A stretch of 56,828 bases of DNA, filler included, from Jimgerdemannia flammicorona (taxonomy: Eukaryota): the NCBI GenBank assembly GCA_003990765.1. It is 3 parts of 3 records of this genome, joined end to end, with 100 filler letters (N's around TTAATTAATTAA, not from the genome) between each part and the next. Parts side by side here need not be neighbours in the genome. Positions count along the whole stretch, not along the records: positions 18,984 to 37,857 come from RBNJ01002084.1; 2 more parts are not named here. One strand, written 5' to 3'. Below the pieces are notes generated by a model. That model was given only the letters and a program-made list of their open reading frames with translations, was not told the DNA's origin and made no database searches. Below are positions 3,089-34,452 of this stretch, one piece after another. Position numbers and translations under genes: made by a program. Each line of letters begins with the position of its first letter. Positions within the stretch are counted from its first letter, which is position 1.

Positions 3089-3121
3089 CTGTAATCTGAG
3101 GCAATTTCTAGTAGTAATATC

Positions 3122-10882: not shown

Positions 10883-11946
10883 ATGCGGCCGGCTGATATC
10901 GCAAGCATCTACTTACTCTTAATCCTGGCCTTACTGGCCCCGACAGCCCACTCCCAAACAGCCAACGCTACAACGTGCCAGCCCCCGACATGGACCAGCA
11001 ACCCCGACACCATGATGAAGCTGACTGCAGCGCTTGTCCTGAGCAATGATTCAGAGACTTCAGTGTTCGACCTCCCGCACCCCAACTACCAAGCGAAGTA
11101 CGACGAACTATGGTCGCAGGGGTGGCGTGTGAAGGTCCTCCGAGCGCGCGTTTCTAGTGGCAACCAGACCCTTTACACAGCAGTGTGGCGGCAAACCGGG
11201 GAATACGAGGCCCAGTACTACGGGTTGGAGTTTGCGGCATTCAAGGCCAAGTATGACGAGCTGTCGGGGAAGAATTTGGGGATGGAGTTTCTTACCCAAT
11301 ATGTCGTGGGTGACGCGGTGTATTACTCGGCTATCTGGAGGCCGGTCCCAGCCAATACTTCTGAGATGCAAGGTATAAATTTTTGCCAATCGCTGCAATG
11401 CCTATGAAATGATACATATGCTCGTTGGTGGTCCGTGCACGGGCTCACACTTCTCCAACCACAACAACCAGGATTCGGAATGGATTACACAGATTTTAAA
11501 GCCAAGTACGACCAGCTCTATCTCCAGGGCTGGCGCCTCCACATCCTCGAGACCTACGTTCATAAAGCCCAGATTCTTTACTCGGCTACTTGGCGCACGT
11601 CGACCGTCGACGAAAATCAGGTGTTTTCGGTGAACCACACGGTACCTATCCCCCCTCCACGCGCGGCCCTCCCTTTTGCTTTTCGGAGACGACGCTAATA
11701 TCACAATGTTTTCACCGTATCCAGACCTACGCAGACTTGCAGAAAAAGCTAATGCCGCAAGGGTGGCGGCTGTCTATCATAAACCAAAACCTCCTCAACG
11801 CGCAGCCATTTTACACGGCCGTGTGGCACATGACAGGAGAAAGCGAAGGCGATATTGATCGGACTAACTGGACGAATTTTGTCAATTTCTACCGCACTGA
11901 GTGGTGCTCGGGGTGGAGGATAAGGCTGTTGGCCGTCGAGAAATGA
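10883..11946 (+). CDS. Secreted ~293-aa protein of polyglycine-hydrolase-like structural repeats (BTRD1 type); 3 exons
   Basis: Exons 10883-11372, 11472-11641 and 11725-11946 give 882 nt in frame, with GT-AG introns and GCTCAC/GCTAAT branch sites. Signal peptide MRPADIASIYLLLILALLAPTAHS. Repeats of the type YQAKYDELWSQGWR...LYTAVWR align exactly across both splice junctions. Confidence 0.88.
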
Positions 11947-14324
11947 AGGCACCTTCCGTATTTATTAGCGTATATACTGGTGGCAAAAATTATTTATGCT
12001 GTAGTCATCCGTAAGGTATTTAACCTGTGTTGAAAATATTTATATTCTACTTTATTCGCTGTATATATTAGTGTATTATTGTTTATTGGAACACAATAAA
12101 TAAGCTTTTCGTGATTTGCCAACGAACAGATCGAGACAATGAGATACGTTTGATAATAGGATCCCTGTATATTCAAACCAACACTAACTAAATACAATAC
12201 CACGTTAATAGTGTATGCATGGGTAAGGTAGTCAGGAACATCCACTTATAATGCTCCCAATAATACAAAATCAAGTCGAGCCTCCTCTCATTTGTTTGTC
12301 ATCACAAACGCCCATTCTCAACAACGTGGGCAACTCGCAAACGTCGTCCTCGTTAATACCGTCCTCGCCGTCATCGTCCTCGTCATTCCGGCCCTCGTCG
12401 ACATCATCCTCAGCTTCCTAACGCGGTCCTCGCCAACACGGTCGCCCTCACCAAATTGAGCCGACGCCATCCACGCCGAACCCAAAGATGTCGTGCATGC
12501 ACCTGTACGGCGTAGACGGTTTCATCAGAAGCTCGGGGGATGATGCACGCGGGCCAGCCGTAGACCAGGAATTATCGATGTGTTCGGTCCAGAGCAATAG
12601 CGGTAGCGGAAGACGGAGCCGTTCGAGTGGCATATATATCAAAGACTTATAGTTGATAACCCGCAAACGTGGTTGTCGTTTTTAGCGTATTGTGTCGCAT
12701 CGGTAACGATTGCGATGGGGTACCGATTTGCAACGTTCAGGGCAGCACAGAGGGGCACGCCACAACGTGTAGAGAAACCCGGTGCAAAATACACTATATT
12801 TCTTGAATTGATACGATGGGTACAAAAAGCGCAACTGGTTATTTTTAAAGAACGTGATGTATGTGCAAACAACCCGAATTTAGTTGGACTAGCTCTAAAT
12901 TCCGCCTACTTTTGGTGCGGTGTCTTAACAATTTCAAATGATTTTGGCGCCATCGATTTACGAGTATGTGGTATGGTGCACCAAGTCTATATATACATGC
13001 TCAAAAAATTTTGACGCCTATCTTTGAGGCAATATTACTCCCACTTACACAAACATTTTTTTTAAAAACAGCTTCATTCCATTGTAGGAAAAATAGTTAG
13101 CTATAATTTATAAAGTCCATTTTTAATATATATATTTTTGAAGAATAAGCCTTTGAAAAAAAAACTCATTTTTGACTGGTAATGGTCCTGGGTTATCACT
13201 ATAATATAGCTTATAAGTTGTTATGATCATGTAATCATAAGTGGAAGTTTGGCCATTGTCTGCTTGTTGTTTATTATTTATTTATTCATTGTCTACTTGC
13301 TTGCTTCTATTGCTATTTTACTATATAGTATATCTGATCTTGAGATTTTTAATTATTTGTTTGAGTAAGTATTGAGTATATTATAGAGATTGAGAGATAT
13401 TTAGATATATTTATATTTCATTTATTTTTTATTTTATCTTACTCGCTTGTTTATCTTATTATTATTTATTTATTTATTCTTTATTACTACTTTATTTATT
13501 TATTATTTATTATCTATTAATAACTCACTCTGTTAGTCTCTATCTTATTTTTTTTCATTTGTTTATATCTTTTAACTTTTACTATTACTCTACTATTATT
13601 ACTTATCTCTTCTACTATTACTTATTCATCTCTTTTACTATTTCTAATTTATTTCTTCCACCATCACTCATTCATCTCTTCCACTGTTGCTCATTTATCT
13701 CTTCTGCTATTGTCAATTGAAGAGACCATTGGTAGGTAGTAGATAAAAAATACAAGACAATTACTTTTGAACATCCATTTTTGCTCCAGCTCCTAGATCA
13801 ATGAATGTCCTCATACCCTTCGATGCTTTTCTTTTTCCGTGTCTTGCTCTTTCCTCGAGACGGTTGAGTCCGTCAATTACAATTCCTTACGACTGCTATT
13901 TTTCGGGACTCGCCGGCTTGTGTAATGTAGGTCTTGGCACACTATACCGACCACAAAATCTCGGACCGCCATGTCGTCATTGCACTGCTCAGGGGTTGTC
14001 CTGCAACGGTGCAAATCGGGAAAGGTACTGCACATGGGTCATGACAACAATGCCTGGTTTGGGCTGTCATTGTACGTCATGTTCTGCTGGCGTGGAACCT
14101 TGATCCAGTAGCGAAGATGGACGGTTCCGTCGTCGATTTCGACCATGTTTGTGCATGTGCGGATGTTATCCGACATAATTGTATTGTGCGAAAAAATTTC
14201 CAAGGAAACTACGCGAGCCCTATCTTACAATGTTTAAATACATATACTACAGGTTATACATTCTAGTTTGCTGCACAGCGTGAGAGGAGGAGGGGGGGGC
14301 ATATTATTGTAACAATTTGAAAGT

Positions 14325-15804
14325 TTAAACGATGTCGGAATCGCTCTTCACCGAGTGCTCTTGTACCAGCCCGTTGGCTGATGAAGGCTTAATGTCGAGC
14401 ATCTCAATGCTCTGCGTGCTGGACGTCCGTTCCAACGTCATGCCAGACTTGCTCTTGCTTGTGTTGCAATTCGTGAGCCTGTTCGTGTCTTTCGAGAGCA
14501 TGTGGACACCACAAGCCTCGCAGTACGAACCCGATTGACTCTTGTTATCATCGCGATCGCCACACAGTGCCTCGACGATGAGGGTGGACTCGGCTAAATT
14601 GAAGTATGTGGTCAGATCGTTTGAGGCGGTCCCTAGGAAGCTGGTGACCTTGATGAAGTTCATGAAAAAGTTGCAGCAGAGGCCAATGATGAGGTAGATG
14701 AGGGATTTTCGGGCCATCCGCTCGACAAAATTGCTTTTGCGGTTGCTACCCTCGATAACCCATCGGTATTCCGAAGCGTGTTTTCGCAATCTGTCATTGC
14801 GGGGAAGGATATTTTTTGCTCAGGTAAGAAAATTAAGCAAAAGACAATTTACCCACACGTAGCCCTTTTGACTCACCTGTAAACGAACAGGCCACCAAAG
14901 AACAAGTTGGCAAGAGTATCGCCGATAAAGCCCAGGATCAAAACGCCTGGCTCCCATACTATGTAGCATACGACAAGGTCATTCGAGCCTGCTGGTTGGT
15001 GAGCATTGTCGATGATATCTCGTTGCGATATAAAGTATGTTCCGACCTCATATGGCCAGTCTGAAACACAAAAGAGTGAACCATATCAGCGTCTGGAGAG
15101 CGGGAGGGAGGGGGGACCCTATCATTGTGACATCGGTTATAATTTAATACCTGCAAACCGGAGCAGGAGCAAAACGCTGCCGACAATCTTGATCATACGG
15201 ATTTGCTGAGGTTTCTCAAATACGATAAGGCACCGCAGCAGCAAAACGGCTTCCATAAACAGGTACATCAAGTGCCAAAGACTACCAAAGATAAAAAAAA
15301 TGATTGAATTAAGTTTTGGAAGGTGAGCGCGACACAACTCTGGTAAATACGCAACAGGTGACGGAAATACGTACGTAACGCCTATGGGGAAAATCCAACA
15401 GGACTGTATTTTAAACAGGCCTTGGGTGCCACTGATGATGCGCACCGAAAACAAGACGACCACCTGAAGCAGATTGAGGAGGTGGCTACAATTGAAGAAG
15501 GCTTTTTGTTGAGTATAAAGTTGCGGCAATTGCAGACATGGTATCGGCATGAATTGTTGACGGGAAGGATGAAGACTTACATCAATTTTCTTGTGCGCCT
15601 CAACTGGCGCCCGCACATAAATGCGTTTCGAATGGAGATCACCTTTCATTTCGAAACCCAGCGAGTTAGACGATGATGGTCGTGTAATGGATGATGCGGG
15701 GATAAATGGACAGGAAAGGATGGAGAACGCACAATGGAGAGCCAACTGCCAATCATATCCAGATTATTGAACACAGATGTCCAATATTCGTTGAGGACGA
15801 TCAT
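14325..15804 (-). CDS. 7-transmembrane GPCR-like protein (~341 aa), 6 exons
   Basis: Exons 15804-15733, 15642-15581, 15485-15375, 15281-15151, 15060-14877 and 14790-14325 give 1026 nt with matching phases and GT-AG introns. About seven hydrophobic segments, Cys at the top of TM3 (QSCW) and in ECL2 (VVCY), and a Ser/Thr-rich C-tail. Confidence 0.85.
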
Positions 15805-18800
15805 GTCGTAGAGTTGAATGACCGATGGGTTACAAGGAAATTTTGACTGTGGGGCGGAGGGTTTAATTTATAGTGCCTAACCCCTCCTGATCGACGTTGG
15901 CGGGCGCAATTAAGTGTGGATCACAAGACTTTTGGGAATTACACAAACAATCTCCATAAGCATCTGTAGCGACCGTATTGAGGGTAGGCGAAGACTCAAA
16001 ACCTCCAACCTTGAGTTCCCATTTCATTTTGACGCGTGCCAGAATGTGTGTGACAAAATTCACTTTGGGACATTTCTTCGGGAGCGTCGATTATTCGATC
16101 GTGGTCTGTGGGAAGTTTACGTAATGGCCATGTGGGGCGGGGGGCGGTAAAGTGTTCATCCGCCAATTATGTTTTCGGTGCGAATCCGAGTCCCTGGGGA
16201 CTTTTTGATGACAACACGATAGCGCGGCAAGGTAGGTTTAGCAAAAATCCGAACTTAACTACGAAAACCATGATGCAATACCGTCCCAGAATCTCAATCT
16301 CGCTGTCTTTTCCGCGGCCGGTTGACAGTGAGCATGTGATTGCGAGAGTTAGCTCGTTGGCCGGACTGGTGATAGATAGTGTCACCGGGGAGACCATAAA
16401 CAAAGGCAAGTATCACCAATAGACGATCCCGATTTTCGAGAATCAACAATGAAACCGGGCAGAGGTTATGAATTCCCACCAATACTCGCATCTCTCCTGA
16501 TCTCGTCGATAACTCCGAAAACGAGCCGAACCGAACCGATCTGCTAGCCTGCTTGGTCTACATAAAAAAAAAGTTGCCACCAACGCCATCCATAAACCAA
16601 AACGCCACCTGTTCACGCTCTTGCAAGAAAATTGGCCCTTTCCTAATTAATAGCTCAGCCGAACGCGGCACCAAAGATCTTCATGCGTACAGTACTTTAG
16701 GTACACCAGCCAGAGGTATTGGTATATAAATGCCTTGTGCTTTGTGACACGTCTGACCAATGAACCCGTGTAACATACCCCACCAAATTACCCTGTCATC
16801 CTTGAGAACCAAAGTGCACGAACTTTTCATTAAATCCGTGGGAGAGACCAGCCACGTAGCCAGCACAGATCTTTCCCTCGGCTCAAGCCAGTTCCACATG
16901 GGGCGAGCCCAAAGCGGAGAGCAGCCCCACAACAGGGCCACCTGTTTCTGCACGGCGCATTCCTTGTTATAGGAAACACGTTTGGGGTTTTTTTTACCCA
17001 TGTTACGCAATTTTGGGTAGACGGCAAAACCTAAATTGCGGTAATGCTGTAGATTAAAATGTATATTCAGTTTTGTGAATACAAATGTCGAGAAAAGGGA
17101 TTAAAAATTGAAGCGACTTTTTCAAAGTTACATACGATACCATTGAATAAAGTCGATAAGACCAATTACTTTTCAAAAATATAATATATTATTATTATAA
17201 TGTAATTATTTCTCATGCTTTAATCATATACGCATCGATTGCAATTAGCAACCCACACGCTTCCAAAATGACAACACTGGTCACAAAAAACCTGTCTGTG
17301 AGGCAAAAATTAATTCTCAGACCTCCAGTCACCCCACGAAATCATTGCCATAAACAATCTGCATAACCCATGAAGGGTGAACCCAAAAATAATTGCCCTT
17401 TGAACATTTATATTCAACTAGTGCGATTTCTCGATTTCGGAAACTCCTTGATCACTTTCCCTGCGTCTGTCAAACACTGATCGCAGGTCGAGAGTCAGTG
17501 AACCCACGTGGTGGAAGCGTCAGTCGCGGGAACCGAACCGCGTGCCCACCTGCCGATTTTGTCGTTTATGACGGGGGGGTTGGGGCCCACGCCCGACGAA
17601 GGACTGCACCTGAGGTTCCCGCGCCAAAAAGATGTCCCCGTTAGGAATTCGTCCGTTCACATAGTCACAAGCCACTAACGAATTGGTTGGGAGTCTGCTT
17701 CAACTTGGGGGGGTATGGTTCAGTGGAGGTGTCGTATTGTATATACGAAATTTCGGCTCTGGTCCCGCGTTATTAGTGCAAGTCTGACCAAATGAATAAT
17801 CAAACGTAGCTATATACGTATCTTACACATCTGCGATTCAGAGTTTCGGATCGAAAAATGTGGAAAACACCTCATGGAGTGTACCCAGAGCGACATGGAG
17901 CCCACGAGGCGGAGCTAGGGCGATGTTCTTTTGGCGTTTTCGGGTTGAGAGAGGATTAGGATGGGGTCGGCGGTGGCGTAGGTTAGAATTTGCAGATCTA
18001 GCTTGTGAAACACGCTTGAGGACGTGGTAGAATTTGCAGATCATGCCGTTTTTAGCTGGTGAAACACGTAGGTCGACATTATTGTACGACATTTCCTATT
18101 CCTACAATTTACAACGAAGATCGAAAAATTTTTCTCTCCTTTTTTTGGAGAAGGAGAATTGGGGGAATGGTGGAGATTAATGTGCCAGAAATCTCCTTAT
18201 GTGCAAGCGTGCATGCATTGAAAGTCATTGACATCCCGATGGACTCTTGGAGAGGCAGTTACCTCAGGCATTCGTGAATTTTTAGGGTTAATGCTGTCAT
18301 TTTGTATAATGAATGAACAGGACACAACCACAAAATGACCATTGACTGCGATAATAGCAGGTCATAACAGGTTGAATCTGAGAACAATCACCTGATAGGC
18401 TGCTGACTTTTGCCAAGCATTCGCAAAAGCTATAAATGTTTGCGCATGGACGCGATGACATTTTCGGGTCGCGTCCGGGGTTTCCGCTTCAAGTGAGTCC
18501 CGAAGTTCCGCATTAGAACCAATGTGCGCGCGACGCGTGCTGGAGGATGTGTATAATCAATAAAACTCGGGAAGACGGAAGCCAATCGTATTCCCGCGGA
18601 ATGTGTAGCTAAGCAATTCACGTGAGTAGATGGAAATTGTGGTAAGCAATTATAACAAGACAGTTGCATCACGCCATTTAGTTTTCACTCAGGGGTGCGT
18701 ATTCTGTAAGTCGAACTGCATGCGGTGAGTATAGGAGCGTCGCGATAAACGGGTTGGCGAGTGTGCGGGGCGTAAAAAATTGTTGGGAACACACATATGT

Positions 18801-18883
18801 AGCAAAATGCATGTTCGTGTGAAATGGGCTATATAAGGCAATGAAGCGTTGATGTAACTTGTGTGTAGTATGTGTGTTACCAA

Positions 18884-18983
18884 NNNNNNNNNNNNNNNNN
18901 NNNNNNNNNNNNNNNNNNNNNNNNNNNTTAATTAATTAANNNNNNNNNNNNNNNNNNNNNNNNNNNNNNNNNNNNNNNNNNNN
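18884..18983. other. Assembly gap with TTAATTAATTAA linker
   Basis: 100-bp N run with a central six-frame-stop linker, identical in form to 37858-37957. Confidence 0.97.
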
Positions 18984-19086
18984 CCCTAACCCTAACCCTA
19001 ACCCTAACCCTAACCCTAACCCTAACCCTAACCCTAACCCTAACCCTAACCCTAATCCTACCCTAACCCTAACCCTAACCCTAACC
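18984..19086 (+). repeat. Telomeric repeat tract (CCCTAA)~17
   Basis: Direct reading, with a couple of variant units. The left end runs into the gap. Confidence 0.97.
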
Positions 19087-22000
19087 TCTCCCCTCCTTCG
19101 CCTCCCCATCAGCCAGCCCTGCTTCAAAGGCAGGTGGTACTGTAGCCATGATGAGTGACATAGTGATGGATTTAGAAGCTGAAGCTTCCACCTCAGGTGC
19201 TTCCCACACTGTTGGTGCTAATGTGCCTGGCCCACAATGAGAGTCGGGTTCCTCAATGCACATGGACTACCCCAGGACAAGTTTGATGTGCTCAGTCAGT
19301 TGATTGGTCCTGCTCTCGACATTCTTTTCATATGTGAAACGTGGTATATCTCGCTGTGTCCCTCTCCGCTCATTCACATGTCCTCCCCCCCGGTGTCGTA
19401 CAGAATTGTGGGTCACCAGAATGGTGGTCTCGTGGTCCTTGTGTCAAACTGTTTCACCCCCCTCATTTCTGGGTCCTCTGCCAACCCCTTCCATATCCGG
19501 CTCATGTTCTAGAGTCTGGCTTTGGTTGGGGTTTATGCCCCCCCCTCTCTTCCCATTGGTGGCTTCCATGATCTGGTGTCTAGACCCTTCCCGGATAAGG
19601 CCCTTTTGATCGGTGACATCAATACCTGCTTCGGTGCCTGCCTTGGTGACATCAACTCTGATCCCCATGATCAGATGGATGTCATCGACACCTCCCTGAT
19701 GACATGGTCATTGAACCACCTGACCCCGGTGGCTGGATCTATATGCGTTGATCACGCATTCGCCACCACATCCCTCCATACGTCCCTCACCTGCTCCACC
19801 CCTCCTGTCCCTACCGACCACCCCTCCCTCCTCACCATCTCCTTCCCCTTCTCCCTCTCACCAGTTGCTGCCTTGGCTGGCATCCGTCGCTACTCTGCGA
19901 GATACCTGACCGACTCGGTCATTCAAGCTCACCTTCAGGAATCAGCGGATATCGTTTGCGATACCGTTATCAGATCTATTTACTCTGTTAGGGACCACAT
20001 CGCCGGCTTTCGCTCTGTGGAAGATTGCCAGCAGTTTGTGGATTCTCTTGATGCTCTTTTGACCTCTAGTCTACAGTCTGTCTGTGAGGACATTCTTGGC
20101 TCGTATGATGCAAGAGAAATCAGAGCAGCGCCACTCCCTAGGTGTGACCTCCTTTGCAGTGCATCTTCGGTCTCTGATGCCATTCATGGTTTTAAGCGGG
20201 CGTACTGCTCCACCCCCCCCACTCCCCTCCAGTCCCACTCCCCCAATATCCTGGTGTTCGATGATGTGGTGGCTCACTTTACCACTATCTTCGGTCAGCC
20301 GGACACCTCCCTCTACCTCGATGACTCTGAAGACGTCTTCCCCCTCGGCATGGGTGCTCTTGGGCTGCAGTTTTGGTTTGACCAACCTACAGTTTGGAGG
20401 GCTATCCGCAGCTACCCCCTCTCAAAGGCATGTGGTGCTGACTCCTTGCATGTCTGGATCCTTCGGGTAATGGCAGGTGAGAAGGACGCCCCCTGTAGCC
20501 TTTCGAAGGCCCTTTCGTTCTTCTTCCAGATGTGTGTGGTCTGGGGGCTCACTTTCCGCCGCTGGAACTCAACCATCATCACCGCGGTCCCCAAGAAGGA
20601 GGAATTGCGAATGATTGATGGATTTCACCCTATTGCTCTGACTGAAATGTTTCATAGACTCTTTGAGCGGTATTTGGAAGGGTACGTCAAGAGCCGAAGT
20701 AGCCTGACAGAAATATCATGCTGCCAAGGTGGCTTCCGAACCCGCTTCTCATCCCTCTCTCATGTCTTGTTATCGCACGAAACGTGGGCTAAGGGATGGG
20801 ACCGCCATGTCTTTTTGGACCTCTGGCAGACGTATGATCGAGTCCTCCTCAAGTGCATTCTTTTCTACCTTAAGGCGCGAGGTGCTGATACAGTCCTCCT
20901 TAGTATTATCCAAAGCCTGTTCAATCACTGTTCTTATCAGATGGTTGTTAACGGCCTCATCACCCCTTCAGTCTCCACTGAGCGTGGCCTCTTTCAGGGC
21001 TCCCTCCTCTCCCCCTGGCTGTTTGATGTCTTCATTGACCCCCTCGCCGCCTCCTTTGATGAACAGTTCAAGGAGTACGACTTCCCCCTCAGGCTCTTCT
21101 TTGCTGATGATATTGCCCTCACCCCCCGCACTGCCGTAGAAGGGCAAAGGATGGTTGATTTTTGTGAGGATTGGCTTCAGGTGAACAGTATGGAGCTCAA
21201 TCTCAAGAAGTGTGGTTATGTTGGCCCAGCTGACTGTACTGTGCTGATTGGGGGCGAACCCTGCCTGCGACCCACCTCCTACGTATACCTGGGCATGCCA
21301 TACACCAATAAAGGATTTGACTTTGTCAGTCTTGCGTTGCAGAACACAGCGAAGGCAGAACAAACTCTCGGGTTCTGCCATGCCCGTGGTCCTCTTTGGT
21401 CACCAATGCTCAAGTTGGCCATCATACGAATATTCATTAGGCCTTAGCTAGAATATGGCCTCCCCCTCCTACATGCTTCCTATCCAGCTACTACCATGGG
21501 GCTTCAGGTATTGAAGCATCCCGAGCAGATCTTTGATGATGCTGTCTCTTGGCCGATTGGATTTTCCATCCATCCCTTGCTTGGCAGTTCGATTCTTGGT
21601 CTCCCTTTCTTTCTCGTCGCATGTCTGACCTCTGCTGCATGTTCCAAGCTCATCTGGATTGGTGTAGCAAGTTGGGCAACAACCCTATCAGCCCTCTTAG
21701 CGAGCACTTTGTCACACATCCCCCGGGTTCTATCATTGACAAGTTTCGGTGTTGGACCTCTTGGCTTGACTTCCTCGACTGGTACTGGGATCTCCATCTC
21801 TAGGTCCACAAGACTCGCTCGCTCCGCTCCTTTCTCCAGTCCTTCCTTCGGGATTAGTTGCTGCAGGAATGGGCCTCCTCCTCCCAGGCTCTCATTCGGT
21901 ATATTACCCCCAAAGTCCATTTACGGTCGTGGGGCGCCAATCGCATCCTTTCCTTCCCCCCCCGGCTTGTGCGTTCTGCTCTCGCCTGGTGCTATGGCTA

Positions 22001-22690
22001 TTTTGGCCAACCCTGCCCCTGCCCCTGTGGAGATAAGTTTCATCGTGGCCATCTCCTTAGGTGCGGTCTTCTCAATGGTTCATATTCTGCTTTCCGAGAT
22101 TCTTCAGATCGAGATGAACAACTTGACTGGTTTATCAATGACGAATGGCAGGGAGAACTTCATGCCTACCCTCTTCACGCTCTTCACGAGACAGCCTACC
22201 ATGCTAATGACGCTATGTGTAATTCTGGTGGCCACCTCGCGGTCGGGTTCTGTCTGACCGAGATTACAAAGATGCTTGGGTGATCGAGTGATCATACATT
22301 TACTTTACTTTTTTCTCTCCCCTCATTTGCCTCGGTTGGTTTCCCCATTGTTGAGAATGCATTGAGTTATTTATCTTATGTCAGACATTTGGTATTTGGT
22401 TGTTGATATAGTTCATATAGTAGGCGCCGGGCAAATGTGTATTATATCTTAGCCTTTCCTTTCTTTGCTTTTTGTATTTATTATCTCTATGGCCATGACA
22501 AAATGGTTTTATCCAGCCCATCCATAGGGTGGTCACCTCTCTGACCTTTGTTTTGTACTTCTTAGCTAGTTGTTTGCTTCACTGGTCTTGTTTTGCTTTT
22601 CTCATCTTAGGAGTCTTGTCTTTTGTTGCTCTGATATACCTTTCTTCTTTACAATAAATAAATTCTTGCTTGAAGCCTAACCCTAACCCT
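19087..22690 (+). mobile_element. Telomere-associated non-LTR retrotransposon family A, copy 1 (5'-truncated in ORF1)
   Basis: Begins at the position equivalent to ~24241 of copy 2. Contains APE-RT ORF2 and a 3' UTR with AATAAA, and ends in CCTAACCCTAACCCT (22676-22690). Confidence 0.95.
19237..22283 (+). pseudogene. LINE ORF2 (APE endonuclease, RT, C-terminal Cys/His motif), disrupted
   Basis: APE motifs FLNAHGL, FICETW, GVYAPP, IGDIN, VDHAF, TDH. RT motifs QGSLLSPWLF and FFADD. C-terminal CPCGDKFHRGHLLRC. Stops at 19510 and 21445, plus a frameshift. Confidence 0.93.
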
Positions 22691-22904
22691 AGCCACTCAT
22701 GTGATTTCCCCATTTGGCTATACTCGGCTTTACGGCCCGAAGCTATTCCAAATTAAGAAAGCAGTCACTTTGATTAGCTAAACCTCTCATCGGGTATAAA
22801 TACCCCCCTTCTCTATTATTTTTTCGTTACACAAACAAAGGTCATGTGACCCACATTTCACAATTTCACAAATACAAACAAATACACCTTCGCCTATTCT
22901 AACA

Positions 22905-24393
22905 ATGTTGGCCACCTCCTCTGTCATCAGTGATGATGGCAACGCCACCCATCTCTTTGCGCGTTTCGGTACCTCTCTCCGCTACACTGAATGTCACAGC
23001 ATTGGTCTTCTCTCCCTCGGCTTCGGCGAGGGTAGCCTTATGGCGATGTGCAGGTCATGCGGGGATGCACGACCGATATCATTGTATTTATCTTCCCTGC
23101 ACGTTGCAGAAGATGACGAAGAGATCGCGATCTATTCCAATTCGGACTATAACACCCAGCGCCACCCCTATTCCCCTACGCCCCCGCCCCTCAATCAGAA
23201 CAAGCGTGATTGCCCAAACACTAGTTTGGGAATGACCCTGACTACCGGTCATGCAGGCCCCTCAGCCGACCCCGATCTAGTCACAGAGATGGCCGCGATA
23301 AGGAAGCAGATCTCGGATCTGCTGACTCAAGTGGCTAAACTGGCCAAGATCAATGCCCAGCTGATGGCGCAGCTTGCTGCGTATCATGCGCCCACCGCCC
23401 CCCCATCATCTGGTACTCCTTCGGGAAGTACCCCCACCGCCCCTTCCACATCTGCCCCCCCCAAGTCCTTGGCCCTCCCTCCTACTAGTCCTGCCGTGAA
23501 TACGTAGTCGAAGGCCCAGAAGCGAGCAGACAAGCGGGCCGCCAAAGCTGCTACATTGCAGTCTAGTGCGCTGCCGAAGGAGGTAACTCCCACGGCTGTG
23601 CCTCCAGCTACCTAAGCTGTACCCCCTAAAAAGGGCAAGGCCAAGGCTCCCGGACCAGTGCCCCAGGTTACGCCTGAGGGACCCAGTGCCACCGGTCCGT
23701 CTTCGTCCTCTGCTTCGGCCCCCGCCCCCCCCAAATCATATGCCACTGCCGCCAAGAAGGTTTCTATCAAGGATAGGACTCAGGCCTACTCCGAGATGGA
23801 AAGGGCAGCTGCCGCTACTGCCCTTTCATACATGACCCACAAGCCGACCTCTCATTTGTCGCTGACTGAGAAGGGCACTAGGCTGCAGTATGTTTACGTC
23901 GACAGATTTGCCCATCTGAAGATCGGGCAGATCCTGAAGAACTTGTATGATGTTGTCCAAAGTTCTCAACATGTCGTACGTCTCAGCGTCGACCATCAAA
24001 TTCCTTCTCCACCCTGATTATGTCACAGCATTCCAAAAGAAGATGAAGGCGCTCGGGTTCTCAGTGCTGTCACCCTGAGACCCCATGCTCCCATGCAACA
24101 AGAATGCCACGGAGGCCATGAAGACGCGGGTCCTCCAATCATTCCATGCTCGGGTCCGGCAGTTGCCTGGCGAAGCCACTGCAAAGAGGCCAAAGGTGCA
24201 GACCTTCTACCGAGCTTGGGCTGCGGAACTCGGCCTTACTCTCTCCTCTCCCACCTCCCCGTCAGCCAGCCCTGCTTCAAAGGCAGGTGGTACTGTGGCC
24301 ATGACAGGTGATATGGCAATGGATTTGGAAGCTGAAGCTTCTGCCTCAGGTGCTTCCCATGCTGTTGATGCTAACGCGCCCAGCCCACAATGA
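22905..24393 (+). pseudogene. LINE ORF1 (gag-like), disrupted
   Basis: Coiled coil LVTEMAAIRKQISDLLTQVAKLAKINAQL, a Pro/Ser/Thr linker and a KSYATAAKK motif. Its stop overlaps the ORF2 start (ATGA). The start could instead be the ATG at 23232. Confidence 0.75.
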
Positions 24394-27300
24394 GAGTCGG
24401 GTTTCTCAATGCATACGGACTACCCCAGGACAAGTTCGATGTGCTCAGTCGGTTGATTGGTCCTGCCCTTGACATTCTTTTCATATGTGAAACATGGCAC
24501 ATCCCACTGCGTCCCTCTCCCCTTATTTACATGTCTTCTCCTCCGGCATTATACAGAATTGTGGGTCACCAGAATGGTGGTCTCGTGGTCCTTATGTCAA
24601 ACTGTTTCACCCCCCTTATCTCCGGGTCCTCTGCCGACCCCTTCTATATCCGGCTCATGTTCCAGGGCCTAGCTTTGGTTGGGGTTTACGCCCCCCCCTC
24701 TCTTCCCATTGGTGGCTTCCGTGATCTGATGTCTGGACCCTTCCCGGGTAAGGCCCTTTTGATCGGTGACATCAATACCCACTTTGGTGCCCACCTTGGT
24801 GATGTCAACTCTGGTCCTCACAATCGGATGGATGTCGTCGACACCTCCCTTATGATGTGGTCATTGAACCACCTGATCCCGGTGGCTGGATCTATACGCG
24901 TTGATCACGCATTCGCCACTGCATCCCTCCATGTGTACCTCACCTGCTCCACCCCTCCTGTTACTACTGACCACCCCTCCCTCCTCACCATCTTCTTCCC
25001 CTTCTCCCCCTTGCCGATTGCTGCCTTGGCTGGTATTCGTCATTACTCTGCGAGATACCTGACTGACCCGGTCATTCAAGCTCACCTTCGGGAATCAGCG
25101 GATATCGTTTGCGATACCATTATCAGGTCTATTTACTCTGTTAGGGACCACATCACTGGCTTTTGCTCTGTGGATGACCGCTAGCAGTTTGTGGATTCCC
25201 TTGATGCTCTTTTGACCTCTGGTCTACAGTCTGTCTGTGAGGACATTCTTGGCTTGTATGACACAAGAGAAATCAGAGCAGCACTGCTCCCCAGGTGAGA
25301 CCTCCTTCGCAGTGTATCCTCGGTCTCTGATGCCATTCATGGATTTAAGTGAGCATACCACTCCACCCCCTCTGCACCCCTTCAGTCCCGCTCCCTCAAT
25401 ATCTCTGTGTTTGACGATGTGGTTACTTACTTCACCACTATCTTTGGCCAGCCGGACGCCTCCCTCCACCTCGATGACTCTGAAGACATCTTCCCCCTTG
25501 GCATGGGTGCTATTGGGCTGCAGTCTTGGTTTGACCAACCTGCAGTTTGGAGGGCTGTCCACAGCTACCCCCTCTCAAAGGCGTGTGGTGCCGACTCCTT
25601 ATATGTCCGGATCCTTCAGGTGATGGCAGGTAAGAAGGACACCCCCTGTAGCCTTTCGAAGGCCCTCTCGTTCTTCTTCCAGATGTGCATGGTCTGGGGG
25701 CTCACTCCCCACCGCTGGAACTCAGCAATCATCACCCCGGTCCCCAAGAAGGAGGAATCGCAAATGATTGATAGATTTCGCCCTATTGCTCTGACTGAAA
25801 TGTTTCGCAGACTCTTTGAGCAGTGTTTGGAAGGTTACGTCAAGAGCCGAAGTGGCCTGACAGAAATGTCGCACTGCCAAGGCGGCTTCTGAACCCACTT
25901 CTCATCCCTTTCTCATGTCTTGCTTTCGCATGAGATGTGGGCTAAGTGATGGGGCCGCCATGTCTTTTTGGACCTCCGGCAGACGTATGATTGAGTCCCC
26001 CTCAAGTGCATTCTTTCTCGCCTTGAGGCGCGAGGTGCCGATGCAGCCCTCCTTAGCATTATCCGTAGTCTGTTCAATCACTGTTCTTATCAGGTGGTTG
26101 TGAATGGCCTCATCACCCCTTCGGTCCCCACTGAGCGCAGCCTCTTCCAGGGCTCTCTCCTCTCCCCCTGGCTATTTGATGTCTTTATTGACCCCCTCGC
26201 CGCCTCCTTTGATGAACAGTTCAAGGAGTACGACTTCCCCCTTGGGCTTTTCTTTGCTGATGATATTGCCCTTACCCCCCGCACTGCCGCGGAAGGGCAA
26301 AGGATGGTTGATTTTTGCGAAGAATGGCTCTGGGTGAATGGTATAGAGCTCAATCCCAAAAAGTGTGGTTACGTTGGCCTGACTGACTGTACTGTACTGA
26401 TTGGGGGCGAACCCTGCCTGCGACCCACCTCCTATGTGTACCTGGGCATACCGTACACCAACAAAGGGTTTGACTTTGTCAGCCTTGTGTTGCAGAATGC
26501 GGCAAAGGCAGAATGAACTCTTGGGTTCTGCTATATCCGTGGTCCCCTCTGGTCGCCAATAGTCAAGTTGGCCATCCTATGTACATTCATCAGGCCTCAG
26601 CTGGAGTATGGCCTCCCCCTCCTATGTGCTTCCTGTCTGGCTACTACCACGGGGCTTCAGGTGTTGAAGCATCCCAAGCAGGTCTTCGATGATGCTGTCG
26701 CTTGGGCGGTTGGATTTTCCGGCCAGCCCCTGCTTGGCAGTTCGATTCTTGGCCTCCCTTCCTTCCTTCATCGCACGTCTGACCTCTGCTGTATGTTCCA
26801 AGCCCATCTGAATTGGTGTAGCAAGTCAGGCAACAACCCTATTGGCCCCCTTAGTGAGCGCTTTGTCACGCGTCCCCCGGGTTCTATCATTGACAAGTTC
26901 CGGCATTGGACCTCTTGGCTTGACTTCCTCGACTGGTACTGGGACCTCTGTCCCCAGGTCCGTAAGACTCGCTCGCTTCGCTCCTTCCTCCAGTCCTTCC
27001 TCCAGGATCAGCTGCTGCAGGAATGGGCCTCCTCTTCCTAGGCTCTCATTCGGTATATCACCCCCAAAGGTTGCTTGCGATCATGGAGCGCCGACCACGT
27101 CCTTTCCTTCCCCCCCCGGCTTGTGCGTTCTGCCCTCGCCTGGTGCTATAGCTATTTTGGCCAACCCCGCCCCTGCCCCTGTGGAGATAAGTTTCATCAT
27201 GACCATCTCCTCAGGTGTGGTCTTCTCGACAGTTCGTATTCTACTTTCCAAGGTTCTTCCGATCAAGATGAATAACTCGATTGATTTTCCAATAATGAAT

Positions 27301-27437
27301 GGCAGGAGGAACTCTGTGCCTACCCTCTTCACACTCTTCATGAGACAGCCTACTATGCCATAGACGCCATGTGTAACTCTAGTGGCCATCTTGTGGTTGG
27401 GTTCTGCCTGACCGAGATTACGAAGATGCTTGGGTGA
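24390..27437 (+). pseudogene. LINE ORF2 (APE-RT), ~1015 codons, several nonsense mutations
   Basis: Same motifs as copy 1. The 3048-nt span is a multiple of 3, and the stops are consistent with C>T changes (CAG>TAG, CGA>TGA). Confidence 0.93.
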
Positions 27438-27844
27438 TCAAGCGATTGCACATTTTCTTTACTCCCTTCTTTCCCCTTGTTTGCCCTGGTTGGTTCCCCA
27501 TTGTTGAGAATGCATTGAGTTATTCATCTCATTTCAGTCATTTGGCATTTAGTTGTCGATACAGTTCATGTAGTTGGCACCAGGCGAATGTGTATTATAA
27601 CTTAGCCTAACTTTTCTCTGCTTTTTGCATTTATTATCCTTACGGCCGTGACAAAATGGTTTTATCCAGCCTGTCCATAGGGTGGTTACCTCTCTGGCCT
27701 TTGTTTTGTACTTCTTAGCTAGTTGTTTACTTTACTGGCCTTGTTTTGCTTTTCTTATCTTAGGAGTCTTTATCTTTTGTTGCTCTGATGTACCTTTCTT
27801 CTCTACAATGAATAAATTCTTACTTGAAGCCTAACCCTAACCCT

Positions 27845-29672
27845 CTTAGACTCAGGTTATTCCCTATGTCTTCTACACTAGTGTGTTTTTCTTTATTAAT
27901 GATATGACCCTCATTCCTCCTGACAGAGTCTTGGTAACACTCAGTGTATAGTTGATATTTGTATTAAGTAGGTAGATATCAATAGTATCTCCTTCAATGC
28001 TAGTAAGTCTAGTGTCCTTTTCTCTGGCAATATCATTATCCTTACCCAATCCTGGGTTTCTTTCTTCTCCTCTCTCTCCTCTTCTCTCTTCTTATACCTA
28101 CTTTGATTATTCAATATAATATCTTCTTGACTGACTTTTCTTTGATTGGCCTGGTGAGCTGGTGACCCACTATAAGAAAGCTGCCTCTTTCCTCTATATC
28201 CTTTTAGCTACAGATAACAGTTGAGATCTGGCTGCATGACTTTCAGTTTACTGAATATTTATATGATTACAGATTGACTATATTCTGCTCTTTCTTTATA
28301 CATATGAGCATTTGTGGCATCTTTCTACTATATCTCATTAATCTCAAAAACTGAGATATCAATATTTTGCATTGATGTCTGGACCTTTCTCATACCTCTC
28401 CTACTACTATCTATGCTATTATATATGTAGCTCTAGTCTTTTCTTGGGCTGAGGCTTTGGCTGTATCTGTAATATTATAGATTTTTCATCTCCTACACTA
28501 TTCACACTATCCTTACCAATATTCCTACCATCACCTCTATCTTTCTCCACTCTCTCCTTGAGAAGCTCTATGCTAATTTAATCTGGCTCTCCTTCTACTA
28601 GAACCTCTCCAACCTTGTGTTGCCTCATGCCCTCAGTTTTTATATTGTATACTCTCACATTAAGTCACTCTCCTCTATATCAATATCAGTCTACTACTCT
28701 TTATAACAGCTTGTAACTATCAGAGTTTTGGTTTAGACTGATATATTTATATCCAGGACCCTTATCTTCACTACAGCGCTCTGCTCTGGTATGTGAATCT
28801 ATTTGGATTTATGGTAGAGAAATAGCAGTGAGCTCTTTTACTACTCTTATGCTCAATATCTCCTAATAGATAATATTGATACCTTAGTTGCAATCTGACC
28901 TAGTGCTCCCAAATGAGTCAAATCAATTCAAATCAAATTGAATTGAGGGTTAAATGAGTCAAATCAAATTAGGGATTTTTGAATTCAAATCAATTCAAAT
29001 CGAATCAAAAGTTGAATCAAATTGAGGGTCTGATTTGAACCCTAAATTTCAAAATACAATAACTCAGCATAAACTCATCCAAATCTAACATACTTTAGCT
29101 TGTTAGAATCATATTAATATGATGAATCTAAGCTAAAATATATTAAATTTAGATGAATTTTCATCAAGTTATTACATTTTGAAAATTATGATTCAAATTA
29201 AACTTCAAATCAAATTGAACCTTTGATTTAATTTGAATTGAATTGAATTGGACCCTTGATTTAATTTATTGGGAGTACTAATCTGATCTATATATCAATA
29301 CTTAGGATCTTATCTCAATAGTATTCCTCTATACATTTGGTCCTTGATCTCCCTGAGTATGGTCTAGTTGATGCAGTTCTTAATGGGTATGATTGGCCCC
29401 TTACTTCCTCTCTTTTCTGTACACTCAAAGCTACTATAGTTTCTGATCTCTCTCTTCTCCCCTCCTCTTCTTCTATTCAGTCTCAGTTGTATGGTTCCAT
29501 TAGACCCATTCTCTTACTGTAATATTGTTTTTCTTCAACTTAGTCTTTTTCCAAACCTTGATATATCTTATATTATTAGTCTTTATACTTTATTTAGCAT
29601 TTTCATAAGTCAGTATAGTATAGATATAATGATACACTTTGAATAAATATCTTACTTCCTATCTCTAACCCT
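27845..29672 (+). mobile_element. Telomere-associated LINE family B, 5'-truncated degraded copy
   Basis: Colinear with ~32735-34215. Ends gaataaatatcttactt-CCTATCTCTAACCCT (degenerate tail 29658-29672). Interrupted by a hAT MITE. Confidence 0.85.
28901..29280. mobile_element. hAT-type MITE
   Basis: TIRs tagtgctcccaa / ttgggagtacta and 8-bp TSD atctgacc / atctgatc. The paralogous LINE at ~33800 shows the empty site. Subterminal AATCAAATT repeats. Confidence 0.9.
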
Positions 29673-32600
29673 CTTATATTGCCTTTAACCTCAATGGTAT
29701 ATATGTTAATGTTACCTATCTCTATATATAACTCCTCCAAGATATCATCCTCCTCCTACAGCAGGAGCTCTATACTAGTCATGCTAAGGCTACTGCTAAT
29801 ATTGCCCAACTTACTGCTACCCTCTAACAAATCTCAGATCTCAACAATTACATTATTTAGCTAATTGACTGACTAATATATTTTGAATCCCCCACTCAAA
29901 CCACCTTATATTCTCAGTCTCATAGTTGTGGTCATACCACCTCCCCTCCCTCTGCTGCCACCAGGACTCCCATCTGGCTATATCAGTCATGATATCTAAT
30001 ATTAAGATTTTTGAGATTTTCTCTAGTGAATCTCTCCCACCTGTCAATAATGATAAGACCAAGGAGTCTACCTTTATTCTAGTATATCAAAGTCCCAGAA
30101 GAAGAGAGTTGTTCATGCTGCCCAACTTGTCTTTACCCCCCCTCCACTCTCCTCAACATCTTCTGCTCTTGGTTCAGTAGTCCATACTGCTGCTGCTAAC
30201 TCTTACTATCTTTATCTCCTCTATCTACTGCCTTAAAAGATCTTCCCAACAAGGGGTAGTTCTTGTTCTCTCCCTCTACCTCTAGTTCCAAGGCAGCCCC
30301 CAAGTCCTTTACTACTACCTCCTCCTCCAATATTCCCAAGGTTACCCTCTTCCAACAAGCTATTAATAAAGCTACTCACTGTATAAAGTCTAATATTGCT
30401 GATGATCTTTTTCAGACTCTTCTCCCCAATACTCAAGCCCACCATATCTGCCAATATCCCACCTATGTCTGGTCCACTAGACTATATAGTGTATATATTA
30501 ATTGTATTACTTGATAAGCCATTTCTGCTCTCAGTAAGGACCTCTGCTTTTGGGGATTTACTGTCTCCAAAATTCACAATGTCATATTTCTCAGTGACAA
30601 TATTACTGAATTCCTCATCTCTGATTATTATTGCATGAGTTTAAGTTCAAGATTACTCATTTTGAATATCAGATTCTTGAAGAGTATGATCCCTCTTATA
30701 TCTGGAACTCCAAGGCCTCTAGTAATGTCCAGACTAGGGTCTGTGAAGCATTTCAATATCATGTCCAGTGGTCTGCTGAGCCTTGTAGCAATGAGCAAAA
30801 CAGGGTATGATTTATTAACTGGGCCTGCTCTCCCAATATATCAATCTCTCCATCTCCTCACTCATAGTAAGAAGGAGCTAATGTCTGAATATATATATAT
30901 TGAATTTCTAAATATACAAGGACTCTTCTCTGGGAAATTCCACTCACTCTCTCTCTCTACCTTCTCCTGCTTTTATTATCTTTTTGTTGCTGGAATCTAA
31001 TACTTATCTAATAATGTTATCTGTCTTTTTCCTCTTTTCATTACATCCTCACCTCATTAACCCCTCTTGAGTTAACTCTGAGAGAGGTTGTAACCTCTCA
31101 ATCAACTTTGATATCTCTCTGGTTAATATCTCCAATAACTGTTTTCTTATATATTATTTCAATAGTCTCTCTCTTATTGGTATATATCTTCTCTCTTCTC
31201 TCTATATTACTTCTGATGTCAGTTCCTCTACCTGCTACCTATCTCCCTCAATTTCCCTTTCTGCTATTATTGTTAGTGACTTTAATATCAACTATACCTC
31301 AGTCTCTCCCCCTGATCACATTTATGCTATTGGACAATAGGCTAGCATCCTGTCCCTTCATTGATTCCCCCCTCTCCCCTCTCCTCTACTCTGTTGGATT
31401 GACCATATCTTTGCTTTCTCCTTCTTGAATATGTCTGTTACTCTTCACCACTCTCTAGTCTTTACTGATCATTTTTCTATGCTTTCCATTTCCCTCCCAG
31501 TCTCTGCCATCTGCTCCCTTGCCCTCTCTGCCATCTGCTGATTTGTGGTTTCTCTACTATACTCTCCTTCTCTCCACCTTTGCCAGTCTTTTACCTAGGG
31601 ACTTCTCTTTGATCTTTCAGGGTCTTGAGATACTGTAGAATAGCCTTACCCCCTCAATCTTCTCTTATATCTTTAGTATTAACATCTATAATTAGATGCT
31701 GACTGATATAATTTGTATTACTGCTAATGTCTCTATTGGTACCATCAACCCTATCTTCAACTACCATTGTCCTGATTATATTGGTGGCCACCTTGGCTGA
31801 TACTCCAATTCTATGGCTGCCATCTCTCTTTGGAAATGCTCTCTCTGAACTAGTGATCATTCTTTCTTCCTTACTATTCCTGAAGAAATTGATGACTACC
31901 AGAGGGCTATCTACTCCACTCTCATCCTTACCCATTACTCTTTGTTCCTTCTCCTGGACTACTCTTCTGAGTTCCCTGATTATATTGGTGATTTTGATCT
32001 TATATCACTCTTTTCTAAACACACTGTATAATAGACATACCACTGGTATTCTCTCTCTAAGTTCCCAGACATTAATGGCATTTATCATCACCTTTTCCAT
32101 CTCCTGGCTAGTGACCACTCTTTCAAGAATTACCCACTCTCTATTTTCCTCTCTCTACTCACATCTCTCTTTCAAATATATACTATTGCTGGTATTACTC
32201 TCTACTGTTGGAACTCTGTTCTTATCTCTCAAATCTCCAAGAAGGGTGTCTCTTTTGGTGTTGATGGCTTCTATTGTATTGTTCTTACCATTATGTTCTA
32301 CTGCCTCTTTGAGTCTGTACTCCTCTGGACTCTGGAAAAGAGTCCACATTTCTCCTGACTTGTGTCCTTCAGTAGGTACCAAGCTGGTTTCTGTTCCTCC
32401 TTTTCTACTGTAATATATACTCTCCTTTTGAATTATGTTATTGACAAGAACTCCTCCCACTATATTGTCTTTCTGGACATTGCGAAGTACTATAACTATG
32501 TTCCCTTCCCACTCATCCTCTCTTACTTTGCTGATCATAGCTACCTCTAAGGAATTCTTTCTCTTGTCTGGTCCATGTTCTATAGTCTTACTATCTCTAC

Positions 32601-34215
32601 CTTAGTGAATGGCATTGCCTTATCTAGTATTATTGCCAACATTGGTCTTCTTTAAGGAGTTGTTCTCTCTCTGTGGCTTCTCAATATCTTCCTTGACCCC
32701 TTGCAGATCTTCTCAATTGACAGTTTCTCTCTCTCTCTTAGACACAGGCAATTTCTTATACCTTATATTCCAGTATACTTTTCTTCATCAATAATATAAC
32801 CTTTGTTCCTCCTGACAGAATTCTTGATATCACACAATACATAGTAGATATATATATTGAGTGGGTGGATACCAATAATATCTCTTTTAATGTAAGCAAA
32901 TCTTGTGTCCTCTCTCTGATAATATCATCATCTCTATACATTCTTGGATTCCCCTCTCTTCCCCCCTCCCTTCTCTCCCCTCCTATACCTACCTCAGTTA
33001 TCCCATATGATATCTCCTTAGCTAGCTTTTCTTTGATTGGCCTGGGGAGCTGGTAGTTCACAACAAGAAGGCTGCTTCTTCTCTTTATGATATTTAGACT
33101 ATAGGTGATGATTAGGATCTGACTGTATGACTTTTGATATACTGAATATTTATGTATTTACAATTCAACTATATTCTGCTCTTTCTATATATGAGCATTG
33201 GTAGTGTTCTTCCACCTTATCTCCTCAATCTTAAAAACTGGGATGTTAATGTCTTGCAATAGTGTCTCAGTCTTCCCCACACTACTCCTGCTATTATCCA
33301 TACTATTATAGGTATTGCTCCAGTCCTATCTTGGGCTGAGACTTCTGCCATATCTATAAAGTTATAGGACTTTCACTCCCACTACTCCTCCAATTCTGTT
33401 CATGTCATCCTTGCCGAAATCTCCACCATAACTACTGTCTTCCTTTGATCTCTCCTTGGAAAACTTTATGCCAATCCAGTCTGACTCTCCTTCCACTGAG
33501 ATCTCTTCAATCTTGCCTCACCTCATGCCCTCAGCTCTTATGTTGCATACTCTCATATTGAATCACTTTTCTCTAGATCAATACTGATCTACTATATCTT
33601 TATGATAGCTTGTAACTATCAGGGTTTTGGTGCAGATCAGTGAATTTATATCCAGAACCCTAATCTTTTCTACAGGGCTTTACTCTGGTATGTAAATTTA
33701 TTTGAGTTTATGGTAGAGAGATATCAATACATTTGCAGTGAGCTCTTTCACCTTTTCTATACTCAGTGTCTCCTGGTGGATGGTGTTGATGACCTAGTTG
33801 TAATTTGCTCTATATATCAATATTTAGGGTCTCATCTTGCTAGTATTCTTCAATATAATAGTGAATATTTGGTCATCAATATTCCTGAGTATAGCTCAGT
33901 TGATGTAGTTCTTAATGAGCATAATTGGCCCCTTGCTTCCTTTCTTTTCTTTGAACTTAAAGTTACTATGATTTCTTATCTTTCTCTTCTCCCCCCACCC
34001 TTTCTCTATTTGATCTCAGTTGGATGGTTCAATTGGGCCCTTCTCTTCATTATTGTTTTGTTTTTCTTCAACTTAGTCTTTTTCATTACTTATTCTAACC
34101 TCAATCTGTTGTGAATTGTCAGTCTTTATATCCTACTTAGTATTTTGACAAGCTGGTATAGTATAGATGTACTGATGCACTTTGAATAAATATCTTGATT
34201 CCTAACCCTAACTCT
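29673..34215 (+). mobile_element. Telomere-associated LINE family B, near full-length degraded copy
   Basis: ORF1-like coiled coil and PKSFTT motif, APE start IEFLNIQGL (~30900), RT remnants YQAGF, VFLDIAKYY and LSLWLLNIFLDPL. Tail CCTAACCCTAACTCT at 34201-34215. Confidence 0.85.
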
Positions 34216-34452
34216 GATCTCTCTCTTCTCCCCCTCTCTTCTTCTATTTGTCCTTAGTTGAATGGTTCAATCAAGCCCTTTTCCTTGCTGTAGTTTTGTT
34301 TTTCTCAATTATATCTTTTTCATTATTTGTTCAAAACTCAATATCTTATAATTTATCAGTCTTTATCCTCTATTTAGTATTTTTACAAGCTAATGTAGTA
34401 TGGTTATACTGATACACTTTAAATAAATATCTTAATTTCTAACTCTAACTCT
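34216..34452 (+). mobile_element. Family B LINE 3'-end fragment
   Basis: Matches the family B 3' UTR (e.g. 33970-34200). Ends in TCTAACTCTAACTCT (34438-34452). Confidence 0.85.

Follow-up and report, generated by a model that had tools for sequence, protein, structure and literature searches.

Introduction

TRAS and SART, long interspersed nuclear elements (LINEs) of the R1 clade in the silkworm, carry an apurinic-endonuclease-like (APE-type) endonuclease and end in poly(A); guided by the specificity of that endonuclease, they lie in telomeric repeats in a fixed orientation, with repeats on both sides. HeT-A, TART and TAHRE of Drosophila and Zepp of Chlorella form head-to-tail arrays at chromosome ends, with the 3' end towards the centromere, 5' truncation and poly(A). 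They are added onto ends or into earlier tails, and in Drosophila they have replaced the telomerase repeats altogether. Endonuclease-less Penelope-like elements are the nearest relatives of telomerase, and their priming on chromosome ends by a telomere-repeat tail is part of the argument that telomerase descends from elements of this kind. Here we analyze a 56,828-nucleotide (nt) stretch of DNA from Jimgerdemannia flammicorona (GCA_003990765.1), referred to as the window, in which five LINE copies of two families are stacked behind a telomere and each ends in a short telomere-repeat tail.

Two further groups are described in the literature. Excerpts of published work report that the endonuclease-less Penelope-like elements Athena and Coprina attach to G-rich overhangs via reverse-complement telomeric repeats (PMC8557442), and that Penelope-like elements of Zymoseptoria tritici carry one to three TTAGGG units at the 3' end, directed in every case away from the telomere, in tandem truncated copies (PMC4522978). 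The fungal telomeric elements MoTeR, FoTeR and Cnl1 lack long terminal repeats (LTRs), are often truncated and occur in arrays; the excerpted text of PMC12857005 places them in the CRE/SLACS group, with a C-terminal restriction-like endonuclease (REL).

The Penelope-like group is the closest in behavior to the array in the window. Like Athena and Coprina, the copies have short reverse-complement telomeric repeats at a 3' end that points away from the telomere, and they form tandem truncated copies at a chromosome end, an arrangement for which G-overhang pairing has been proposed (PMC8557442, PMC4522978 and PMC13159263, in the parts available). The defining features of that group are nevertheless missing. 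Athena and Coprina have a Penelope/telomerase-like reverse transcriptase (RT) and no endonuclease, whereas the elements described here have an N-terminal APE-type endonuclease. A hammerhead ribozyme stands beside the tail of Athena and Coprina; in the window no Rfam family reached its gathering score, a weak negative because the copies are decayed. The present elements also differ in their C-terminal CCHC knuckle and in that many copies of their relatives lie away from any telomere tract.

With TRAS and SART the array shares an APE-type LINE at a telomere in fixed orientation, but it has no A tract, the telomere repeat is itself the tail, neighboring copies are separated by just the 15-nt tract, and copies are found outside telomeres as well. 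Truncated non-LTR copies in a telomeric array recall MoTeR, FoTeR and Cnl1; here, however, the endonuclease is of the N-terminal APE type and no restriction-like domain was found, the REL motifs given in the excerpt of PMC12857005 not having been looked for singly. Finally, where HeT-A, TART, TAHRE and Zepp end in poly(A), these copies end in telomere repeats, and a normal CCCTAA telomere caps the array. In the full-text literature we found no endonuclease-bearing LINE clade described with telomere-repeat tails; repeat databases and supplements lay outside this scope, and Repbase may list such ends.

An array of LINE copies with telomeric tails

The copies, their tails and the adjoining telomere were located as follows.

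18884 to 18983, no strand: assembly linker (N run, TTAATTAATTAA, N run), read directly, separating two unrelated contigs
18984 to 19088, + strand: terminal telomere tract with which the contig opens, some 17 CCCTAA repeats long, found by direct reading and by 15-mer search
19086 to 22675 (to 22690 with tail), + strand: A1, a family A LINE copy, 5'-truncated by about 1.55 kb, 86–89% identical to A2 at a spacing of 5153–5154 nt
22676 to 22690, + strand: A1 tail, CCTAACCCTAACCCT, 0 mismatches
22691 to 27829 (to 27844 with tail), + strand: A2, the longest family A copy (5154 nt including tail), recognized by open reading frame (ORF) pieces, tblastn and Pfam
27830 to 27844, + strand: A2 tail, CCTAACCCTAACCCT, 0 mismatches, its final CT common to the start of B1
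27845 to 29657 (to 29672 with tail), + strand: B1, a 5'-truncated family B copy starting at the equivalent of 32735–32737 in B2
29658 to 29672, + strand: B1 tail, CCTATCTCTAACCCT, 2 mismatches
29673 to 34200 (to 34215 with tail), + strand: B2, a heavily decayed 4.5 kb family B copy in which an RT fragment is the sole recognizable part
34201 to 34215, + strand: B2 tail, CCTAACCCTAACTCT, 1 mismatch, its final TCT common to the start of B3
34216 to 34437 (to 34452 with tail), + strand: B3, a family B remnant comprising the last 237 nt including the tail, 3' untranslated region (UTR) only
34438 to 34452, + strand: B3 tail, TCTAACTCTAACTCT, 3 mismatches, all C>T

The telomere tract is the left chromosome end, with the C-strand reading inwards. 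Two units near its inner end are slightly irregular, and it adjoins the 5'-truncated copy A1. A preliminary description of the tails began 3.6 kb further in and lacked this context. All five copies are on the + strand directly behind the telomere, and only the tails separate them; they form a single head-to-tail stack whose 5' ends face the chromosome end and whose 3' ends face the centromere. The AT-rich DNA beyond the B3 tail shows no detectable LINE similarity.

To place the tails against chance, the 15-mer CCTAACCCTAACCCT was searched over the window with up to 3 mismatches, and the expectation was taken from 100 shuffles. There were 22 matches where 1.46 were expected, a number that none of the 100 shuffles reached. 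Apart from the tails, 17 matches were found: 15 in the telomere tract (18985–19088), one overlapping at 22682, and one on the minus strand at 2430–2444. The search recovered the five tails where the preliminary description had put them and with the mismatches it had counted, all but one of which are C>T; the base after the first tail, 22691, is the additional in-register A that had been noted. With the pattern YYTAAYYYTAAYYYT, four of the five tails have no mismatch and the remaining one has a single mismatch. Direct reading of all five 3' ends shows no A tract, as had been claimed.

The position of the tail relative to the element is constant. From the end of AATAAA to the tail the distance is 13 nt in A1 and A2 and 10 nt in B1, B2 and B3, which bears out the earlier remark that each tail closely follows this signal. 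The five 3' ends align position for position, and the tail starts in the same aligned column in all of them. Family B tails are preceded by cttaatt, cttgatt and cttactt. The division into two families stands, but their 3' UTRs are not wholly dissimilar, as had been thought: GAATAAAT, CTT and an ATGGTT block are common to both. At the A2/B1 and B2/B3 joints, the last 2–3 bases of the tail double as the start of the next 5'-truncated copy, so that the tail length at these joints is 12/13–15 nt and not strictly 15.

Element class

The copies are non-LTR retrotransposons that encode both an endonuclease and an RT, that is, APE-type LINEs, of two families. Intact comparison proteins of about 1000 residues, P0001 and P0002 among them, were taken from public assemblies. 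Residues 4–961 of P0001 match A2 at 24390–27230 with 34.8% identity (tblastn), and residues 4–820 match A1 at 19237–21651. A2, interrupted by stops and frameshifts, has an ORF1 remnant that starts at 22905 and an endonuclease that starts at about 24390, followed by RT and C-terminal region; A1 begins just before the endonuclease domain, its truncated 5' end joined straight to telomere repeats. In B2, residues 428–612 of P0001 match at 32140–32703 with 36.6% identity (tblastn).

The RT is of the non-LTR type in A1, A2 and all relatives tested. RVT_1 (PF00078) was matched by A1 (E 6.2e-16), by A2 (E 3.1e-12) and by 13 of the 13 relatives tested with Pfam, and a profile of these 13 found LINE-1 ORF2p as its best solved match (E 1.2e-44), ahead of R2 proteins. 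The N-terminal 230 residues form a diverged apurinic-endonuclease-like domain, for which the support is weak but runs from end to end. Residues 10–213 of P0002 align with positions 3–225 of the 225 in Exo_endo_phos at E 0.0037, below the Pfam cut-off; each of two Pfam endonuclease families was matched by merely 2 of the 13 relatives; and positions 6–210 of the relatives' profile match solved LINE-1 endonucleases at E 0.0013–0.0088. The motifs N..G, E-T-W, Y-x-P-P, G-D-x-N, D-H and T-D-H are legible in A1 and A2, in A2 as LNAYGL, CETW, VYAPPSL, GDIN, VDH and TDH. At the C-terminus is a CCHC knuckle, CPCGDKFHRGHLLRC in A1 (frame 21858–22283), whose residues C962, C965, H973 and C977 are invariant in the relatives. 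The domain order is thus N-terminal APE-type endonuclease, RT and CCHC, and the knuckle, the variable 5' truncation and the lack of LTRs are those of a LINE.

Pfam found no RNase H domain in the window or in the relatives; Tad1 is listed with RNase H in the part of PMC4640811 available. Pfam searches of the ORF1 pieces and of the other frames of the window were uninformative, the exceptions being a weak gag match and, on the other contig, a BTRD1 repeat. The matches of P0001 in the Protein Atlas are unnamed LINE-like clusters without taxa. A Penelope-like identity was rejected on the presence of the APE-type domain; among solved structures, the RT is nearest to LINE-1 ORF2p.

The tail in metagenomic relatives

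Metagenome contigs were scanned with the alignment of the relatives. Of 595 matching stretches, 392 code for a relative; the 80 best of them were retained. The end of ORF2 is included in 68 of these 80, and in these the tail was sought within 2 kb downstream. CCTAACCCTA occurs downstream on the sense strand in 39 of the 68, and its reverse complement in none. The upstream and body sequence of the relatives, 326,381 nt in all, contains eight sense-strand matches and no antisense match, and four of the eight are themselves tails of upstream copies (L049, L053 and two in L059).

A conserved motif stands before the tail. It is of the cttaa type and directly precedes 28 of 51 tails (taact in 16, taatt in 9, ttaac in 3), much as in the family B ends of the window, and AATAAA lies 2–14 nt upstream in 17 of the 51. 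The length of the tail, in contrast to its uniformity in the window, ranges in perfect repeats from 10 to 30 nt among 48 complete tails, with 11 nt in 12 of them, 13 nt in 6 and 15 nt in 6. In one closely related group the start of the tail is fixed and the lengths are 10–15 nt. The fixed length reported in the preliminary description therefore holds in the window, apart from the two joints with shared bases, and fails in the relatives; the broad length distribution that it had named as telling against its reading does exist, in other genomes. The uniform 15 nt is local to the two families of the window rather than clade-wide.

In an RT tree built with FastTree (77 ingroup rows), tail-bearing rows make up 17 of 30 on one basal ingroup branch and 25 of 47 on the other, and they are present in nearly every larger subclade. 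Family A of the window is about 30–36% identical to any relative, and the trait therefore spans a deep divergence. These observations show the tail to be old and widespread in the family.

When the last 120 nt of 15 relatives were folded to a consensus, three pairs emerged, none of them covarying, and no conserved hairpin was found beside the tail. A scan for short tandem repeats at 30 tail-less or doubtful loci found just a degenerate CCTA-type tail (L008) and CCTAAACCCTAA (L023). The latter, at L023:3410–3421, is a seven-base unit resembling the plant-type telomere repeat and follows AATAAA and ttcaa; it is a single case. Two such loci are not enough for the conclusion that the tail follows the telomere unit of the host.

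Sequences flanking the tail

Flank of 80 nt or more is available for 45 tails; at 33 of them the DNA beyond the tail has no similarity to any element in the set. In L020 the tail adjoins an NB-ARC/TPR reading frame (L020:10105–11634, minus strand); the tail meets the end of this frame, as though the insertion had cut the gene. Elsewhere the flank contains a NACHT-ankyrin frame (L066:6220–8724) or Tet/JBP-like frames (L058 and L069). At 11 of the 45 tails, or 12 with the doubtful L062, a 5'-truncated relative follows immediately in the same orientation, and in some cases the follow-on copy is down to 30 nt and a second tail. In the window, four of the five tails are directly followed by another copy. 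The head-to-tail joints of the relatives occur on contigs with no long telomere tract in view. The earlier suggestion that the endonuclease cuts at a fixed distance from the telomere/subtelomere junction does not account for these joints; it is without support and not required.

The fixed start of the tail, its exclusive presence on the sense strand in relatives and its non-telomeric flanks show that the tail is element sequence, carried to wherever a copy inserts. Exact head-to-tail joints would hardly ever result from random insertion; new copies therefore have a preference for CCCTAA tracts, be they telomere or earlier tails.

The 5' edges of the relatives were considered in L061, the sole relative examined for this purpose. 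No telomere-like bases lie at the 5' edge of its similarity to L058, and no target-site duplication was found, although this edge may not be the true 5' end.

Two loci are unusual. L058:1–9814 and L054:3–9811 are alike for more than 9.8 kb as far as the tail, beyond which they diverge completely; what they share is either a unit of exceptional length for a LINE or an array of copies that moved as a block. In L059, inside a 5'-truncated relative, a 20-nt TAACCCTAACCCTAACCCTA tract (L059:4507–4526) stands where some 86 nt between the ORF1 and ORF2 regions are missing. Neither simple insertion nor truncation accounts for this telomere-like filler inside the copy.

Age and decay of the array

A1 and A2 are 87.8% identical and differ by 400 transitions and 38 transversions, many of them at CpG. 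B1 and B2 are 71–82% identical over aligned segments and 75.2% overall. The observed/expected ratio of CpG is 0.52–0.57 in the A copies versus 0.00–0.04 in the B copies (0.04 in B1). Because the inner B copies have the lower identity and have lost nearly all CpG, the proximal copies are older and the distal copies younger. Ordinary decay accounts for the C>T changes in the B tails.

Over 19086–34452 the decay is strongly transition-biased and centered on CpG, suggesting methylation-linked mutation of repeats in this host or a process like repeat-induced point mutation.

Proposed mechanism and alternatives

The explanation that best accounts for these observations, and that we regard as probable, is that a telomere-C-strand tail on the RNA is used to start reverse transcription on DNA 3' ends with which it pairs. 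The element RNA itself would end in about 2.5 telomere C-strand repeats (CCUAACCCUAACCCU), in place of a copied poly(A). Reverse transcription would begin at this tail, or inside it, from a 3' end of DNA whose TTAGGG sequence can pair with it. The G-strand end or overhang of a telomere could serve as primer, as could a nicked tract of telomere-like sequence, tails of earlier copies among them. TTAGGG repeats would thus be the first DNA added to the end, as telomerase would write them. Repeated events, each leaving a copy that is 5'-truncated or eroded and then capped, would build a head-to-tail stack with the oldest copy innermost and a normal telomere on top; in this array they could be terminal additions or insertions into the telomere made by the endonuclease. 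The preliminary description had likewise proposed an RNA that ends like a telomerase template and pairs with TTAGGG ends. That the tail is part of the element is now supported by the relatives; the pairing and priming we infer.

Several features fit this mechanism. The 3' ends directed towards the centromere, the order of ages and the joints are those expected for priming from the G-strand. The uniform 15 nt would most simply be the full templated tail of the two families, with copying from the extreme end of the RNA and 0–3 nt of microhomology at that end; the 2–3 nt shared at two joints would be expected because the DNA 3' end would pair with the last bases of an RNA ending in ...CCCU, after which the entire tail would be copied.

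Other observations weigh against priming by a C-strand tail, or against its generality. No tail was found in 29 of the 68 relatives, and while 22 of these have less than 1,500 nt of downstream sequence, the other seven have 1,757–2,000 nt and still none. The basal forks of the RT tree are supported by just 89 and 80. The endonuclease domain has been kept, so that pairing with free ends is not required, and most copies of the relatives lie beside DNA that is neither telomere-like nor similar to elements. The chief difficulty is that priming from a long overhang should trap old telomere tract, yet all five joints hold just 15 nt. This calls for telomeres that were very short or gone at every event, or else for nicks right on the tract's inner edge. 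Lastly, AATAAA near the tail suggests polyadenylation, but no A tract has been copied, which the mechanism leaves unexplained.

Could the tail instead be target DNA, the 15 nt being telomere left over by a telomeric-repeat-specific endonuclease of the TRAS/SART kind? The array does immediately adjoin a genuine telomere, the elements do have an endonuclease domain, and joints at tails are frequent in the relatives. Yet many tails lie beside ordinary DNA, the NB-ARC/TPR frame included, and their start always comes right after a conserved element motif; the L061 similarity edge is free of telomere-like bases, and random insertion into a tract should leave residues of varying length, not 15 nt five times. 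We consider this quite unlikely, and we are hardly more inclined to see in the tail an ordinary simple-repeat LINE 3' end that equals the telomere unit by chance, has no role in finding telomeres and came to form an array through accidental subtelomeric accumulation. A fixed start with a variable end is indeed how microsatellite-type LINE tails behave; most relatives stand beside DNA that resembles neither telomere nor element, and the 15 folded 3' ends revealed no conserved structure. But the unit is the host's own telomere repeat, found 3.6 kb away, the orientation is 39 to 0, and exact head-to-tail joints are far too frequent for random insertion. Moreover, the array starts at the telomere, and its orientation and order of ages are the ones predicted by G-strand priming. 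Such a chance resemblance is, in our judgment, unlikely.

Each 15-nt tract might also be a short cap that telomerase added once the 5' end of the inner copy had broken or eroded, with the next copy joined on afterwards; the tract would then be part of the inner neighbor instead of the 3' end of the outer copy. A1 has precisely such a cap where its truncated end meets the telomere, and telomerase capping between additions is included in the model for Penelope-like elements (PMC13159263, in the part available). Caps should, however, vary in length and register, while the distance from the tract to the AATAAA of the outer copy is fixed in all five cases; relatives without an inner neighbor also have the tail, and the DNA after the B3 tail has no LINE similarity that could be detected. 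As the sole source of the tails, capping is something the evidence already argues against, and we rate it as highly improbable. Least credible of all, to the point that we give it almost no weight, is that a single junction, duplicated in tandem or segmentally, gave rise to the array in place of separate retrotransposition events. The regular A1–A2 spacing would suit it, but the five copies come from two families and have five different 5' ends, from which it follows that one duplicated junction did not produce them. The sequence after each tail also differs, and A1 is capped by telomere where A2 runs 1.55 kb further upstream. The preliminary description had already judged duplication unlikely, and the differing joints contradict it.

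A broader proposal, in our view somewhat less likely to be right than wrong, extends priming by a C-strand tail to a deep and widespread clade of endonuclease-bearing LINEs, distinct from Penelope-like elements, whose RNA 3' end resembles a telomerase template and whose every insertion would begin by writing TTAGGG. The endonuclease would serve internal insertions, while free or short telomeric ends would serve addition at the tip, so that the elements would heal or extend ends beside telomerase. If true, this would be a second, independent retroelement lineage working like telomerase at the priming step. The same device in endonuclease-bearing LINEs would mean that it evolved more than once, or that it is older and wider than thought. 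It would also provide a system in which one protein could be tested on nicked internal targets and on free telomeric ends. Many of the short telomere-like tracts that lie interstitially in host genomes would be explained as LINE tails and not as relics of chromosome fusion.

Other features of the window

Positions 1–18883 and those from 18984 onwards belong to separate contigs, which need not be neighbors in the genome. On the first of these contigs, a tail-like tract, CCTACTCCTAACCCT, lies on the minus strand at 2430–2444, with AATAAA 48 nt upstream and CTTAAG before it. No LINE coding similarity was found near this tract. About 190 nt upstream of it is the motif GTATAAATACCCCC, which is also present in the 5' region of A2 (about 22788–22801); similarity between the A2 5' region and this contig is confined to these 14 nt. 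The tract may belong to a short non-autonomous element using the same tail. The same contig contains, at 10748–11407 on the + strand, a frame with two BTRD1 repeats, a polyglycine-hydrolase-like structural repeat (E 2.7e-10).

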